Assembly: GCA_965205975.1 (NCBI GenBank)
Contig: OZ242195.1
Span: forward strand, 3,264,001-3,328,000
Direction: 5' to 3'
Source of the DNA: Candidatus Latescibacterota bacterium
GTDB taxonomy: Bacteria; Latescibacterota; UBA2968
Length of the DNA: 64,000 bases
The position numbers were made by a program. Of this stretch, positions 15,001 to 24,000 are shown one piece after another. Numbering within the stretch: position 1 is the stretch's first letter; the number at the start of each line of letters is the position of its first letter.

Positions 15001-18000
15001 TTTACTCCTGCTATTCACTTACCGCGTATTCCTGACCAGATCCAAATCCGTACTGAACAAATCGCGAATATCGTTAATACCCAGCGCGACCATCGCCATT
15101 CTATCAACCCCCAGACCCCAGGCAATCACTGGCACATCCACACCCAGAGGTCGTGTAAGCTCAGGCCGAAAAAGACCCGCGCCCCCAAGCTCCATCCAGC
15201 CCAGAACGGGATGCTTCGCCTGAAGCTCTACTGAAGGCTCGGTAAAAGGAAAATAATCGGGCACATAGCGCACATCTTCGGCCTGTGCGATCTCAAGCGC
15301 GAACAACTTGAGCAAACCGAGCAAACTGCGAAAATTTATCTCCTCGCCCAGAACAATACCCTCAGCCTGAAAAAAATCTGCCGCGTGCGTGGCATCGACA
15401 TCATCCGGACGAAAACAACGCGCAAGAGCGAAATACTTACCCGGGATATTCGGCTCTGAAGCGAGCGTACGCGCCGAAAGCGCAGTGCCCTGACTTCGCA
15501 AAATAAGGCGGCGAGACTGCTCGGGATTGAACTCATAACGCCACCCGCGCGAACCTGTCTCGCCCCCGCTCTGATGCGCCTCAGCCACCCTCGAAAAATA
15601 GGGTTCCTCTGCCTCTCGGGATTGCGTTGGCTCCGTAACATAATACGCATCGTGAATATTGCGCGCCGCGTGGAACTGCGGCATAAAAAGGGCATCCATA
15701 TTCCAGAACTCGGTCTCCACCAGAGAACCTTTCATCTCTTCAAAACCAAGCGCCATCAACCGGCGCCGCACATTATCGAGATACGCCCGATAGGGATGGT
15801 GCTTCCCAATAAGCACGCGCGGCGGCTTAATCGACAAATCATATCGGCGAAAAGACGCGCCCTGCCAGGTGCCCTTCTGAATCATTTCCGGCGTAAGCCG
15901 AGAAACTTCATCACCCGTAAGATTGGCTTTGACAACCTCCACAAGCACGCGCCGCCCTTCTTCAGTAAGACAATAAACCCGCTCCGTGCGCTCGTCCAAA
16001 CGAACAGGTGCCCTGCCCCCGCCGCGCTTGCGGGCATTGGCTTCGATATACTGGACAACATCACCGGGAAAATTATCAATCTCAATTCCGGTATCGGAAA
16101 ATTTGTCAAAAAATTCTGGCATAAGTCGATCAATAAAAAAAGAAGCCCGATTCGCATCGACAATAACAACAGCCCCCTTATCCAGATCGATAATCCCATC
16201 CTTTTTCAAACCGCCAAACGCACTGCCCCAGGCCCCTCTGTCAAACCGCTCGTCGGCTTGCAAATCCTGGATCCCAACGCGCTCTGCACTCGCCCGGGTC
16301 AAAAGTGCCGTCTCTGGCGTCGCGCCCTTTGTTGCAAAATCCCGTCCCACTTCCGTAAGCGAAACCGTTGCACGCGTATTTTCCCCGGTAACTTCGAGCA
16401 ACTGCTTGGAAATCAGCCACTCGACCGCGCGCCGAACCTGTCCCTCGCCAATACCCGCCCCCTTTTGAAGTTGTGCATCGGACTGCTCGGCACTGGCATT
16501 ATTTTGATATGCACGCAAAATGCGAATTTCGAGAGCATGTAAAGATGCGAGATCAATCAAAAGAAACTCCTTATGTAGCGATTAGCGATCAACCCATCCA
16601 ACCCCCAGCCCCTTTCTGGATCGCGGCTCAAAACCACGCCGCGATGACGGCTTTCATTGTCTTGCTTACCAATAAAAAAGCCCCTTCGTCATCATAGGGA
16701 CGAAAGAGCTTTCGCGGTACCACCCTATTTGCGCTTAAAAGCACCACTCAGCGGATGGCCATCACCATCCTGTCCATTATCGGCGGACCCACCGGCTCGG
16801 CTTAATAGGAAACTGTCTCTCCATTCGGCTTTGCAGCTCGGGAGGGAACTTCGCCTGTGCATCCTGCAGATGTGCTTTCAGCCCAGGACACATCCTCTCT
16901 GTGCAGTTGGGAACAGGCTACTTTTCTCCGTCATAGCTTTAAAGGCAAAACATAGAAATTTGCGCCACAAGTGTCAAGCCGAAAGTCGCAAATCTATCCG
17001 TCAACCGTTTTTCCAAATACACTCACAAACAGGAGAAAATCGGGAAAATCAACACTGCCGTTCCTATCGATATCGTATTGGGCCTCGGACGATCCAAATG
17101 CACTCACAAACAGGAGAAAATCAGCAAACTCGATTATGCCATTGCCGTCAAAATCCGATTTGACTTCCACAGAAAGCGGCTGAACAACGCCAGAAATCGT
17201 CAGCATAAACTTCGCGCGATCCGGATCATTACTCAAAATACTGATATTACCCGAAAACTCGCCCTCCATGGGCTTGGGAAACGTAATCGTAATCGTCGCC
17301 GAACTATCCGGAGATAGTGTAAACATAGAAGGCTCAAACGTCAAACCCGACACATCGCTCTCAATACCCGTAATCTCCAAAGGCGCAGTTCCCGTATTCG
17401 TAATCGTAAAAGTCTGCTGAGCCGTCTTTTCGGCATCAATACTCCCGAAATCAATTGCGGGTGCCCCCACAACCAGCACTGGCGCAGGTGCCGCCTGCAC
17501 AATCACAGAAACGGATAATGTTTGTGTTGCACTATTCGGATCATTACTCGAAATCGTGATATTACCCGAAAAAGTGCCCTCCGTCGAACTCGGAAACGTA
17601 ATCGTCACCGTCTGTGAACCGTCAGGTTCCAATGTGAACATCGTAGTATCAAACGTCAGACCCGACACATCGCTCTCAATACCCGTAATCTCCAGCGGTG
17701 CAGTACCCGTGTTCATAATCGCAATCGTCCGTTGACCTGTTTGGCCTGCCTCAATAGCACCGAAATTAACAGCCGTTTGCTGAACCGCAATCGCTGGCAC
17801 AGGTCGCGGCTGAACGGTCACAGAAACGGATAATGTCTGTGTTCCACTCTTCAGATCATTACTCGAAATCGTGATAGTACCCGAAAACGTACCCTCTGAC
17901 GAACTCGGAAATGTCACCGTCACCGTCTGTGAACCATTGGGTACCAGTGTGAACATATAAGGCGTAAACGTCAAACCCGACACATTACTCTGAATACCCG

Positions 18001-21000: not shown

Positions 21001-24000
21001 CGCCGCTATACAGGTCGGTCAGTTATACCCGATGACCGCAAGTATGAGCACCTGACCGCGATAGTCAGAGGCGCTATATGTACTGCCGTCGGTGCCTGTT
21101 AGAGAAAAATTAACTGTTTGTGCAGAGGCAGACCCAACGAGCAAAAGCAGAATCATCGGGATGGACAATAGATATTTGCGCATGGCATTTATCCTTATAT
21201 ATTGGTGCAAGTGAAGATATATTAAGTGATGGTGCAGTGGACGGTCAAAACCTTCTGGATCGCGGCTCAACTTCATGCCGCGATGACGGCTCTCCTGTAC
21301 TATAGGTATCAACGCTTAAATCTAACAGAAGTTTCTCCACAGGTCAACCACAAGGAGTGAGCGATGGGCATCCTCACAGAACAAAAAAAATCGTTCTTTG
21401 ACACCTTTGGATTTCTCGCATTTCCGGAGTTATTGTCAGATTGCATCGACGAAATTATCGATGCATTTGAAACGGTATGGGCACAACGGGGTGGTGGACA
21501 CAACGGGCAACCGCATGACGGCAAACGTCGATCGTGTATTGTGCCATTTATCGACCAGCACGAACGACTGTGCGCCCTCTTAGATGATCCGCGAATAAAA
21601 GAAATTCTGGTCGGCTTACTCGATGAAAATTTCAACTACATGGGATCAGACGGAAATTATTATGCCGGAGACACGCAATGGCATTCGGATGGCTGGGGCA
21701 AGGAAATACGATTTGTAAAAATCGCCCTGTACCTGGATCCCCTAACGCGCGACACGGGCTGTCTGCGCGTCATCCCCGGGAGTCACCATCTCAAAGATCA
21801 ATATGCAAATAATGTCGAAAACACCGTCCGAAATTCCCCAGATCAATGGGGCATACACGGACCAGATGTACCTGCACTACCACTGGAAACCAATCCCGGC
21901 GACGTCGTCTTATTTAATCACAACTTAAAACACGCGGCCTTTGGAGGCAGTCCACGTCGGCGGATGTTCACCATCAACTGCAGCGAACGCTTCCCTGAAG
22001 ATGAAGAACATATTGACCTATTAAAAACACAGATTGCCGCACGCGCGCGGTTCTGGAACGATCGCGCTTATGGAAAAATCATGCTCGCAACCGCTGGACC
22101 CGAACGCAAAAAACATCTGGAACAAGTCATAGCACACGACGACCACCTCGCCGAACTCTCAGCCCGCGCAAGAGAAGAAATGCCCGAGCCATCGCGAGGA
22201 TAACGGGTTCTGTCGCGTTTAGATTACTGGATTGCGGCTCAAAACCATGCCGCAATGACGAGTGTCAGAATGTCCACCTATTAAAAACCCACAAAGCCCT
22301 GTGATCTCGAATCGCGGGGCTTTTTTTTATTTAGGAATCCGTGCTTTCGAGTCACATATATATAGCGGGTGGAAAAACAAGCGGACAGCGGTCAGTAGTC
22401 AGTGGTCAGCTAAAAATTTTCTGGATCGCGGCTCAAAATCATGCCGCGATGACAGACCGTCCCCAGCACAACAATCGTCTATCCGGAGTCATAATGAGCA
22501 AACGCGATGCAGAACAAGTGCAAAAAGTATTGTCTGGCGACCAGGCTGCTTACGAACCGCTGGTCAAGGCGTATCAAGGACGCATCTATGCCTTCGTGGC
22601 TGGTCGAACCCGCAACTTTTCCGCGACAGAAGACATCGTACAAAATGCGTTTGTGGAGGCATATATGCACCTCAAGTCTCTAAAATCGCCCGAAAAATTC
22701 TCAGGTTGGCTGCGGGGAATTGCACTCAATCTATCGAACAAATGGCTTCAACAAAAACGCCCAGTCGTCTCAATGGACGACACATCACAAGATGTGACAC
22801 CTGAAATATCGGAATTTCCATTGCCAGACCTACCCGACGAAGCACTGGAAAAAACCGAAACAAAAGAAGCCGTCATAGCCGCTATTGATACATTGCCAGA
22901 CATTTATCGGGAAGCGGTATTGCTCCACTACATGGAAGGCATGACCTATCCCGAAATCGCAGCCTTTCTCGACATCCCCGAAAGCACAGTAACCGGACGC
23001 CTTCAGGTTGCGCGCAATCGCTTGCGCGACGAATTGATGCCGCTGGTAGAAGACACGCTCCGCGAAAAACGTCCAACACCTCAATTAACGCGCAAAATAA
23101 TGGCCGCATTACCCCCGCTATTGTACGCAGTGCCAACGCAGGCGAGCCTGCTCGCCAAACTGAAAGGAACAGGCATGATAAAAATAATGGGTATCATCGG
23201 CGCAGGAATCGCGGGAACGGGATTGTATTTTGGTGGGATTTCGGCAGTATGGAATTTAGGACAAGAAAACACTGAGCCATCCCAGGTGCCCCAAATACAG
23301 CTCGAATTGGAAAACCTCGCTCAAAATGAGCAATCCGTTCCTGAGAAAACTAACGAAACAGAGGGCGTAGAATCTTCGCCACAAGAAGTCCAATCCGATT
23401 CCAATACAAGTGGCGACACACAAACAGAAAAACTGGACTTCAGAATGGAAACTTCGCCACAAGATTCACTGGTAAAAATAGTGTACTGGATCCCAGAAAC
23501 GATTTATTCAGACTCCGTCTTTGCAGAAATTGATTTCTTCAATATTCACGGTGCAAGGGCTGCCAAGCCGGTCAAAAAAACACACGCACCCGGCTCTTAT
23601 ACGGCGTTTTTATCCAAACGGGGATTGCCTGATGGCAGATACCTGGTAAGGTTATCCGCAACACAGCAATCCCTGAAAGAACATCAAGAGGTACATCACG
23701 CATTGGAGTTGGTCTGGAGATACAGATATCAATATGAAGGCAATGTACAACAAAAGATGGACTTTAAAATAGTAAGTTCGCCGGGGGATTCAATAATGGA
23801 AATTGCGTATTGGATTCCAGAAACGATTTATTCAGACCCTGTCTTTGTAGAACTCGATTTCTATAACAGTCACGGTGCAAGGGCTGCCAAGCCGGTCAAT
23901 AAAACACACGCACCCGGTTCTTACACGGCGTTCTTGCCTAAACGGGGACTTCCCGACGGAACATACTTTGTGAGATTAAGAGCAGATCGGTCAGAAGAAA

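Follow-up and report, generated by a model that had tools for sequence, protein, structure and literature searches.

In the pathway that leads from DsbD to TlpA and CcmG, thioredoxin-fold carriers alternate with a β-hairpin dithiol. To our knowledge, the bacterial pathways that reduce disulfides end in the periplasm. A thioredoxin displayed on the cell surface by the T9SS does exist, HBP35 (PMC2907840), and some DUF6029-like barrels have been tied to polysaccharide export (PMC9603273). The cis-proline of the ResA/TlpA/CcmG reductases is a feature described in PMC2757866. Our literature searches returned nothing on dockerins or cohesins in Latescibacter and only unrelated items on selenocysteine in this group. 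PMC4454575 contains no passage on dockerin, cohesin or selen-, PMC13326102 no relevant passage, and PMC7712824 yielded nothing on the operon; the review PMC13188914 does not use the words dockerin, secret- or Latescibacter-.

Here we analyse a tandem gene pair in a 64,000-nucleotide stretch of a Candidatus Latescibacterota genome (the window). We propose that the encoded redoxins stand at the cell surface as the outermost members of a thiol relay that spans the envelope and runs from DsbD through TlpA and a barrel dithiol to a surface selenoenzyme, a proposal whose chances of being right we consider evenly balanced.

Gene architecture

The genome-wide survey's note had described ORF A, ORF B and a third copy (Table 1) as UGA read-through genes. 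Each proved to be open throughout save for a single in-frame TGA (U55, U55 and U61, respectively). The three products share a common plan, in which a signal peptide is followed by a UxxC thioredoxin-fold domain, two to five Ig repeats and a dockerin-like tail. Both the architecture and the selenoprotein status originally assigned to them are upheld. The NCBIfam scores for the three proteins were likewise reproduced, with 275, 237 and 104 bits for choice_anch_D and 28.8, 22 and 23.8 bits for dockerin_GC (cut-off 29). An AGGA ribosome-binding site lies 9 nt upstream of the ORF A ATG, and scans of the gene interval for promoters and terminators gave numbers at chance level (9 versus 6.9 and 6 versus 5.3). 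The redoxin motif of ORF B reads G-Y-G-U-P-T-C, with Asp at the cis-Pro position.

Table 1. Features of the stalked redoxin genes; positions refer to the window unless a contig is named
Feature	Position	Strand	Description
ORF A	18964..21183	minus	739 aa; exported selenoprotein comprising a signal peptide, a redoxin with UxxC, five Ig repeats of the ASH type and a dockerin-like tail
ORF A predicted Sec-pathway signal peptide	21121..21183	minus	aa 1-21, A-x-A site before Gln; by sequence inspection only
ORF A thioredoxin-fold domain	20713..21120	minus	aa 22-157; motif G-Y-N-U-P-T-C; Glu at cis-Pro position; model pLDDT 86
ORF A in-frame TGA (Sec55)	21019..21021	minus	read-through, homologue conservation, contigs of four runs
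ORF A SECIS-like hairpin	20993..21004	minus	4-bp stem, loop GGUC at +19..+22 after UGA
ORF A Ig repeats	19138..20703	minus	five of ~104 aa, ASH/HYDIN-like (choice-of-anchor D), without cysteine
ORF A dockerin-like double EF-hand tail	18967..19137	minus	Pfam Dockerin_1 25.8 bits (cut-off 22.9); dockerin_GC 28.8 (cut-off 29)
ORF B	16994..18907	minus	637 aa paralogue, 56 nt downstream of ORF A: signal peptide, redoxin, four Ig repeats, dockerin-like tail
ORF B in-frame TGA (Sec55)	18743..18745	minus	read-through, contigs of four runs
ORF B variant SECIS-like hairpin	18717..18730	minus	loop with a Val codon in place of Gly; G retained at +19
ORF B Ig repeats	17171..18427	minus	four; profile matches, sequence
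ORF B dockerin-like tail	16997..17170	minus	EF-hand match, Dockerin_1 match below cut-off, alignment
Third copy	contig C1:3042769-3044070		433 aa, one in-frame TGA (U61)

Evidence for selenocysteine

On comparative evidence, the three proteins are almost certainly selenoproteins. The conservation of a single in-frame TGA, claimed earlier from fewer genomes, was confirmed in a search of 168 genomes: among the matches listed, 143 of 150 homologue rows have exactly one TGA, and the remainder comprise five without TGA, one with TAA and one with both TGA and TAG; a further 32 rows lay outside this list. The UGA falls on the catalytic Cys site, which is Cys in homologues, and five intact orthologues carry a Cys codon in its place. 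The resolving cysteine of the motif is invariant (56/56). The genes selA and selB and the tRNA-Sec, stated to be present, were all found, as was selD.

The in-ORF SECIS fits the consensus model, and directly behind the UGA stands a hairpin whose loop of 3–9 nt opens with G. A stem of at least 4 bp around +19..+22 was observed in 35 of 56 Sec forms, compared with 2% after synonymous recoding and one of five Cys forms; in some forms of one family (f4), the hairpin is offset by about 3 nt. In the alignment of the hairpin, 93% of the cells are paired and there is one compensatory pair. As far as can be read from the coding sequences, the hairpin is codon-constrained in the Sec forms and relaxed in the Cys forms.

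These observations bear directly on the alternative that translation really ends at the TGA, or that the TGA is erroneous, so that we would be dealing with pseudogenes or with pairs of independent genes. Each of the 46 public protein records returned for the redoxin family starts after the UGA and lacks the motif, as this alternative would have it; however, the part downstream of the TGA has no signal peptide, and the position of the conserved TGA, the Cys codons of the orthologues, the constraint on the SECIS codons and the presence of the Sec machinery make it extremely improbable. Contigs from four runs of one study span the TGAs of both ORF A and ORF B with no difference, but they may include the source sample and are therefore not independent support.

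The selenoproteome of the genome

The survey had counted sixteen selenoprotein genes. Each of the 13 given with coordinates is open across a single internal TGA; the TGAs themselves were confirmed, whereas the positions offered as their first bases are, for minus-strand genes, the low coordinate and thus 2 nt off. The count itself is too low. A UGA screen added five conserved genes of the read-through type; two of them belong to known ArsC families that had gone unnamed, and the genome's selenoproteome consequently exceeds the earlier figure, with at least 18 genes. A first version of this screen recovered 9 of the 13 known genes, while the second kept all 13 among 614 candidates, which a hairpin filter reduced to 51 with 12 of the 13. 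Seven of the 12 new candidates were dropped, four having no family match that spans the TGA and three, left unscanned, being evident neighbouring separate genes. The AhpC-like gene at 392723-393316 has a weak hairpin and was retained as a selenoprotein because its TGA is conserved (one TGA in 14 of 15 rows, two in the other).

The redoxin domain

The description of these domains as ResA-like holds for the fold but not for family membership. The predicted structure and a fold search indicate a thioredoxin fold with a β-α insertion and a C/U-x-x-C motif, and the closest folds are ResA and its relatives (TM-score 0.76–0.79, model against PDB 1su9 and 3kcm). In contrast, the ResA/TlpA models gave 26–28 bits against a cut-off of 170 (NF002854) and 19 against 230 (NF047696), no Trp precedes the motif, and the cis-proline before the third β-strand is present in none of 57 Sec forms, compared with 33 of 34 W-type controls. 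Its position is taken by Glu (20), His (16), Asp (15) or other residues (6) in the Sec forms; of 133 Cys homologue domains, 124 have Asp there. A quick tree covering 124 of 229 domains placed the G-x-x-U-x-x-C redoxins on a branch separate from ResA/TlpA (SH-aLRT 95). By these sequence characters, the redoxins form a thioredoxin-fold subfamily of their own, with the motif G-x-x-[U/C]-x-x-C and without the cis-proline.

Both Pfam PF00578 and PF08534 exceed their cut-offs on the domain, and none of the NCBIfam selenoprotein redoxin models reached its cut-off on ORF A, ORF B or the third copy. Two other assignments were rejected. For the OS_HP2/DUF1573 selenoproteins (NF041425), the score passes (134 and 123 bits) only by adding up Ig repeats, a repeat-summing artefact; these repeats contain neither Cys nor Sec, and the Sec in a UGC motif within the DUF1573 domain is absent. 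Membership in the peroxiredoxins was discarded because the P-x-x-x-T-x-x-C/U motif and the Arg at the cis-Pro position are both absent.

The prevalence of Glu, His and Asp at the cis-Pro position raises the possibility that this residue, together with U and C, forms the ligand site of a metal-binding or peroxide-reducing module; according to PMC2757866, the cis-proline may prevent metal binding and is replaced in peroxiredoxins. Yet the residue varies freely among the Sec forms, unlike a fixed ligand, and the invariance of the resolving Cys and the missing peroxiredoxin motif also speak against such a module, which we find decidedly unlikely. It would be compatible with the relay and would change the substrate only.

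Dockerin-like tails and the T9SS

The tails had been described as falling just below the profile cut-off. This caveat can be softened: the ORF A tail passes the Pfam model of the duplicated Ca-binding loop and helix (PF00404), and that of ORF B stays under its cut-off with 17.9 bits. An alignment of 35 dockerin-like sequences revealed an invariant Asp pattern. The tails of the 57 Sec domains are dockerin-like in 41 cases and a T9SS sorting domain in five, with two being neither and nine cut by the end of the locus; the sorting domain was detected in 47 of 150 Cys homologues with a profile of our own, and TIGR04183 exceeded its cut-off in 14 of 25 chosen Cys homologues. Across the redoxin family, as judged from these profile matches, the dockerin-like tail and the T9SS sorting domain are interchangeable, and the stalks contain 0–14 Ig repeats.

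The genome encodes 62 dockerin-like ORFs and three cohesin proteins, each bearing a sorting domain. Besides the redoxins, the dockerin-like module occurs, among others, on a sulfatase, polysaccharide lyases, proteases, a nuclease and LRR/WD40 proteins, as well as on two canonical Cys TlpA proteins. SprA and 15 PorV-family genes represent the T9SS; the PorU-like protein scored below its cut-off, which counts against the relay. PorV genes are not enriched near dockerin genes (two within 5 kb versus 1.7 expected). When the ORF B tail was modelled in complex with two Ca and the cohesin encoded at C1:3908771-3913195, the score was 0.02 against a mark of 0.32, which neither supports nor opposes docking.

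Profile searches detected no T9SS sorting domain in ORF A or ORF B that would account for their passage across the outer membrane, which also weighs against the relay. The redoxins might instead work in the periplasm like ResA and TlpA, as disulfide reductases that receive their electrons straight from DsbD, with the stalk and tail serving only to position them in the envelope. The missing sorting domain would fit this, as would the resemblance to ResA, the presence of DsbD in the genome and the dockerin-like module on the two TlpA proteins. The exchange of the tail for a sorting domain, the typical surface cargo that shares it, the loss of the cis-proline used for protein substrates and stalks of up to 14 repeats make a periplasmic role quite unlikely.

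A conserved DUF6029 barrel partner

By calling the finding mostly corrected annotation, the survey's note overlooked the main functional clue, a conserved tlpA-DUF6029 barrel partner. The redoxin family occurs in 101 of 132 genomes of the class, about three quarters; both redoxin and barrel are present in 95, neither in 25, and either one alone in six each. The distance between a redoxin gene and the barrel gene is at most 2.5 kb in all 20 genomes of family f2, in 36 of the 42 from f4 and in three of seven from other genera of the host's own family; all these counts come from related genomes, which are not independent samples. Three observations count against the relay: no linkage was found in the 21 genomes of this genus, where the tlpA-barrel pair is kept at another site, the three genomes of family f3 all have the redoxin and no barrel match at E<=1e-20, and the two genes of f4 often point away from or towards each other and are not co-transcribed. 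Two genomes (G036 and G080) show the order tlpA-barrel-Sec redoxin(s)-tilS-ftsH, and the present genome has tlpA-barrel-tilS-ftsH (C1:5486352-5488407). A distant metagenome contig carries tlpA, the barrel and a Cys redoxin with a T9SS-type tail; on a second, the end of the barrel gene directly precedes a Cys redoxin, and a third locus holds just 202 nt upstream. The barrels are 34% identical and keep the Cys pair.

All seven neighbouring barrels examined exceed the cut-off of DUF6029 (PF19494), and the copy in this genome matches their profile with E 6e-180. Both cysteines of a CxxxxC motif are invariant in the seven and are the sole cysteines of this genome's barrel. The model is a large β-barrel with a C-terminal Phe; its Cys hairpin, with C488 and C493, is of low confidence (pLDDT <50 at 482-493), a further point against the relay. 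No solved relative was found by sequence, and a fold search returned ushers and large porins with low TM-scores.

This resemblance, and the link of DUF6029 to export, agree with a different partnership, in which the barrel exports, folds or docks the redoxin or is its substrate. The Cys pair would then be structural or kept in its state by TlpA, no electrons would cross the membrane, and the enzyme would be recharged by small extracellular thiols or act as an isomerase. Gene linkage suits any partnership, and the dockerin forms need some way out of the cell; however, redoxins with a T9SS sorting domain of their own are still linked to the barrel, dithiol thioredoxin-fold genes flank the barrel gene on both sides, and exactly two cysteines are kept across distant groups. 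We consider this partnership unlikely.

Discussion

In the relay that we propose, DsbD would reduce periplasmic TlpA, TlpA would reduce the CxxxxC hairpin in the last loop of the DUF6029 outer-membrane barrel, and the barrel dithiol would in turn reduce the selenenyl-sulfide of the redoxin, which could then act as a reductant on extracellular disulfides or oxidants. In place of the sorting domain of the relatives, the dockerin-like tail would tether the enzyme, plausibly on the T9SS-exported cohesin proteins, with the Ig stalk setting its reach. The Sec codon and SECIS, fold, architecture, tail exchange, gene linkage, invariant cysteines, DsbD and T9SS parts are documented above; the surface location, the direction of electron flow, the docking partner and the substrate are our inferences.

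More tentatively, and with less than an even chance in our estimation, electrons may cross the outer membrane of Latescibacterota and of other bacteria with a T9SS along a purely thiol/selenol wire, in which the CxxxxC hairpin of the DUF6029 barrel would swing and hand them from periplasmic TlpA to surface Sec redoxins; in this class, these would be held by a cohesin-dockerin layer on T9SS-exported scaffolds, shared with about 60 other proteins. Our literature searches gave no precedent for a dithiol on a barrel that takes electrons through the outer membrane.

The conserved redoxin-barrel neighbourhood suggests an undescribed route for reducing power to the cell surface. If true, it would give DUF6029 a function and place selenocysteine at work outside the cell envelope. 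The trio of TlpA, barrel and redoxin is a concrete, testable candidate for recharging surface thioredoxins such as HBP35, whose electron source is not given in the abstract of PMC2907840, and Cys versions are found in bacteria with a T9SS that may be open to genetic work. The analysis also corrects the annotation of a widespread redoxin family whose public records begin after the catalytic codon.

Comparison with known systems

The redoxins share the fold with β-α insertion with ResA/TlpA/CcmG (1su9, 3kcm; NF002854), but have G-x-x-U-x-x-C instead of W-A-x-W-C-x-x-C with the cis-proline, and a stalk and cleavable signal where those proteins have a membrane anchor. With two families in Table 1 of PMC13188914, the Prx-like thiol:disulfide oxidoreductases (PF00578, UxxC) and the Redoxin family (PF08534, UxxC), they have in common the fold, an attacking Sec and an in-ORF SECIS, whereas none of the families in that table combines a signal peptide and Ig stalk with a dockerin or T9SS tail. 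HBP35 of Porphyromonas gingivalis, as far as the abstract of PMC2907840 describes it, is likewise a thioredoxin-motif protein displayed on the surface via a C-terminal sorting domain; it is, however, a Cys enzyme that binds hemin and has neither stalk nor dockerin, and it is compared here by its features.

With the cellulosomal and non-cellulosomal cohesin-dockerin systems, the genome has in common that many secreted proteins bear a duplicated Ca-binding loop and helix, and that the cohesins sit on a few large proteins. The putative docking system differs in its diderm host, T9SS sorting domains on the cohesins, one cohesin per scaffold, Phe-rich helices and mixed cargo. Finally, the alternation of carriers and dithiols would be shared with the pathway from DsbD to TlpA/CcmG, the barrel and the N-domain of this genome's DsbD having the same C-x4-C spacing; the known pathway ends in the periplasm, whereas the proposed one would add a barrel dithiol across the outer membrane.

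Two tandem genes with an in-frame TGA

The tandem genes ORF A and ORF B, as well as a third copy elsewhere in the genome, each become a single open frame when one TGA is read through (see the table). This agrees with the genome-wide survey's note, which had proposed these three genes at the same lengths; the feature and the core of that reading stood, but its gene count and its ResA-like family label were both corrected. ORF A and ORF B are 56 nt apart, and a ribosome-binding site precedes each. Both start with a signal peptide, predicted by eye from the sequence. The N-terminal domain was modelled as a thioredoxin fold (pLDDT 86), whose nearest folds in a fold search were PDB 2ls5 and ResA. 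ASH-type Ig repeats follow this redoxin domain (five in ORF A, four in ORF B), and the C-terminal tails are dockerin-like, with a double EF-hand. Both TGAs were crossed unchanged by contigs of four runs from one study, possibly including the source sample.

The neighbouring genes, pheS/pheT and a PhyH dioxygenase gene, are little informative on function. The T-box riboswitch upstream of pheS-pheT begins 50 nt past ORF B. A repeated short intergenic element, at which contig depth rises four- to sixfold, lies just upstream of ORF A, and a stretch near window 16610-16650 resembles it. Two other members of the genus (L031, L035) again have the ECF sigma factor gene of the window, with or without TlpA, next to their Sec genes.

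Features in the window and on contig C1 of the source genome
Feature	Location	Strand	Remarks
ORF A, 739 aa	window 21183-18964	-	Open once TGA at codon 55 is read through
ORF B, 637 aa	window 18907-16994	-	Open once TGA at codon 55 is read through
Third copy, 433 aa	C1:3042769-3044070		Read-through of TGA
T-box riboswitch	window 16693-16943	-	Terminator 16676-16713
Repeated intergenic element	window ~21245-21290
ECF sigma factor fused to repeated C-terminal domains, then TPR + canonical Cys TlpA gene	window 22341-25671	+
rRNA operon	window 52555-57735	-	16S, tRNA-Ile, tRNA-Ala, 23S, 5S
tlpA and barrel genes	C1:5486352-5488407	-
Three giant T9SS-tailed proteins	C1:3902881-3913195	-	Two with dockerin then cohesin
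Separate small protein	C1:1293551-1294379	+	Cohesin + sorting domain
Dockerin-tailed protein (L187)	C1:4405397-4408225	+	DUF6851; weak vanadium-haloperoxidase helical-bundle match
ArsC/Spx-like UxxC selenoprotein (L129)	C1:1214580-1214939	-	TGA in 14/14 matches, one with extra TAA
ArsC UxxS selenoprotein (L130)	C1:2607282-2607632	+	TGA in 16/16 matches
M20 amidohydrolase (L127)	C1:110137-111459	+	Sec in G-H-G-U-G-H-N; TGA in 15/15 matches
DUF5069 protein (L131)	C1:4618196-4618474	-	Sec in Y-P-U-P; TGA in 15/15 matches
Weakly thioredoxin-like N-terminus (L128)	C1:1107465-1108745	+	C-T-U motif; TGA in 14/14 matches

The TGA very probably encodes selenocysteine

Comparison of sequences indicates that the in-frame TGA of the redoxin family is selenocysteine (Sec). 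A profile of the N-terminal domain found matches in 108 of the 168 genomes of the phylum. Exactly one TGA was present in 143 of the 150 matches listed, 32 further matches lying outside this count; five had none, one had a TAA, and one had a TGA and a TAG. The five TGA-free forms are intact, carry Cys at the Sec position and are scattered at separate points within Sec branches in a quick tree.

Downstream of the UGA there is a hairpin with the loop GGUC at +19 to +22, which matches the SECIS consensus in the consulted portion of PMC13188914 (section 5); its pairing held in 93% of cells, a value reached by 0 of 500 shuffles. Synonymous codon choice within the hairpin is almost invariant (Ala+6 GCG 35/36, Gly+7 GGT 45/46, Pro+8 CCG 43/46), in contrast to looser control sites outside it (Gly-3 29/56, Pro+1 16/35), and stems of 4 bp or longer were formed by 35 of 56 Sec forms versus 2% of recoded controls and one of five Cys forms; the sequences behind all these hairpin and codon counts share ancestry, and their independence is overstated. 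A search with the domain returned 46 public proteins, all of which start past the UGA, the named ones being choice-of-anchor D proteins. selA, selB and tRNA-Sec, all three listed in the earlier note, are present in the source genome, selA and selB above their cut-offs. That this TGA is a true stop seems exceedingly improbable.

The redoxin domain is distinct from ResA and TlpA proper

The cis-proline, a hallmark of the ResA/TlpA families according to the part of PMC2757866 consulted, was found in none of the 57 Sec forms versus 33 of 34 W-type controls, and assignment to ResA or TlpA proper was therefore rejected. For 124 of the 133 Cys homologue domains, the residue at this position is Asp. 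In a quick tree the G-x-x-[U/C]-x-x-C group falls on a branch of its own; its Cys members, one of them named from Marinimicrobia, are plentiful in public collections. Many Cys homologues have a T9SS sorting domain or a lipoprotein-like start; our own profile detected the sorting domain in 47 of 150, and TIGR04183 was passed by 14 of 25 selected ones. The absence of the cis-proline suggests that folding polypeptides are not the substrates. That the domain is a metal or peroxide module is quite unlikely in our judgement.

Among the Sec forms, stalk length varies from 0 to 14 repeats; 41 have a dockerin-like tail and five a T9SS sorting domain, two have neither, and in nine the locus end cuts the tail off. 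In protein P0133 of a relative (locus L004, G010 C1:4826807 onward), the Sec redoxin carries a dockerin and then leucine-rich repeats in place of the Ig stalk.

A putative surface docking system

Dockerin-like modules occur in 62 ORFs of the source genome. Among the 57 of these that were scanned are a sulfatase, lyases, proteases, a nuclease, a haloperoxidase-like protein and two Cys TlpAs, together with numerous LRR, WD40 and NHL repeat proteins. From its sequence, the L187 protein is a possible surface oxidant producer. Three cohesin proteins are encoded, each with a T9SS sorting domain after the cohesin and two with a dockerin in front; the cohesin-sorting-domain layout recurred in 12 of 13 profile-matching loci among 32 examined. 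All 55 genomes of families f1-f3 (f1 being that of the source genome) have cohesins, versus 46 of 76 of f4, the family in which the five Sec forms with a T9SS sorting domain were seen. The dockerin-like tails would putatively dock on cohesin. The source genome has SprA, 15 PorV-family genes (e.g., C1:1666922, 4824925, 5088956) and a PorU-like gene under the cut-off. About 12 of the 15 PorV-family genes come immediately after that of a large secreted protein with a sorting-domain-like tail, judged by eye, which suggests that they are cargo-specific shuttles. A periplasmic location, with the selenoenzyme as a reductase there, appears unlikely.

A DUF6029 barrel as candidate partner

In seven of 12 distant loci the redoxin adjoins a secreted protein of ~510 aa, which was DUF6029 in all seven and was modelled, with a fold search, as a large beta-barrel with a terminal Phe. 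An invariant C-x4-C stands just ahead of its last strand; strand parity would place this loop outside the cell or folded into the pore, in a part where the model is weak. Redoxin and barrel were both found in 95 of 132 class genomes, neither in 25 and only one in 12; among matches listed, they lay within 2.5 kb of each other in 20/20 genomes of f2, 36/42 of f4, 3/7 of other f1 genera and 0/21 of the source genus. Counting against the link, no barrel match was found in the three f3 genomes although redoxins are present, and redoxin/barrel orientations differ within f4.

A canonical TlpA gene directly precedes the barrel gene in the source genome and in G028, G036 and G080. In G036 and G080 the genes run tlpA-barrel-redoxins-tilS-ftsH, whereas in the source genome tlpA overlaps the barrel gene start and the barrel directly precedes tilS-ftsH-folP, with no redoxin between; the redoxin genes therefore probably moved out of this cluster in the source genus. 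Of three metagenome loci with a Cys homologue, one reads tlpA-barrel-redoxin, one has a barrel end and then the redoxin, and one is without upstream DNA.

A full DsbD is encoded in the source genome. In our best reading, which we hold about as probable as not, DsbD would hand electrons to TlpA, TlpA to the barrel dithiol, and the dithiol to the surface selenoenzyme, where Sec would provide a more reactive nucleophile. That the barrel instead exports or docks the selenoenzyme, with no passage of electrons, seems doubtful.

Size of the selenoproteome

Read-through of one internal TGA opens each of the 13 genes for which the survey had given coordinates. Its total of 16 proved too low: our UGA screen yielded five more genes, with the TGA conserved in relatives for each. 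Family matches extend across the TGA in both ArsC genes, M20 and DUF5069; the C-T-U protein has a weak match alone. Since both ArsC types are known families (PMC2398784, in the portion consulted) that had gone unnamed, the selenoproteome comprises at least 18 genes. The other three may be the 'three new families' mentioned in the survey's note; the M20 type is absent from the 119-family table of PMC13188914 as consulted.

Comparison with known systems

The consulted part of PMC13188914 includes generic UxxC redoxin classes among its 119 selenoprotein families, and the ORF A/B-type architecture is not among them; the part of PMC13326102 consulted held no matching passage, and its database and supplements may hold members. 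A literature search, with most subscription papers outside its scope, returned no account of the redoxin family, and none of a thiol relay that runs through a barrel. In the portions consulted, other extracellular selenoproteins are described (bioRxiv 10.1101/2022.07.06.499078), HBP35 is a surface thioredoxin (PMC2907840) and DUF6029, which came up in a single listed paper, is a possible polysaccharide porin (PMC9603273). The ORF A/B protein belongs to a known selenoprotein class, and what is new is its variant form. The redoxin and its likely barrel partner could represent a new kind of envelope pathway; P. gingivalis presumably has a similar cluster, tlpA-barrel-Omp28.
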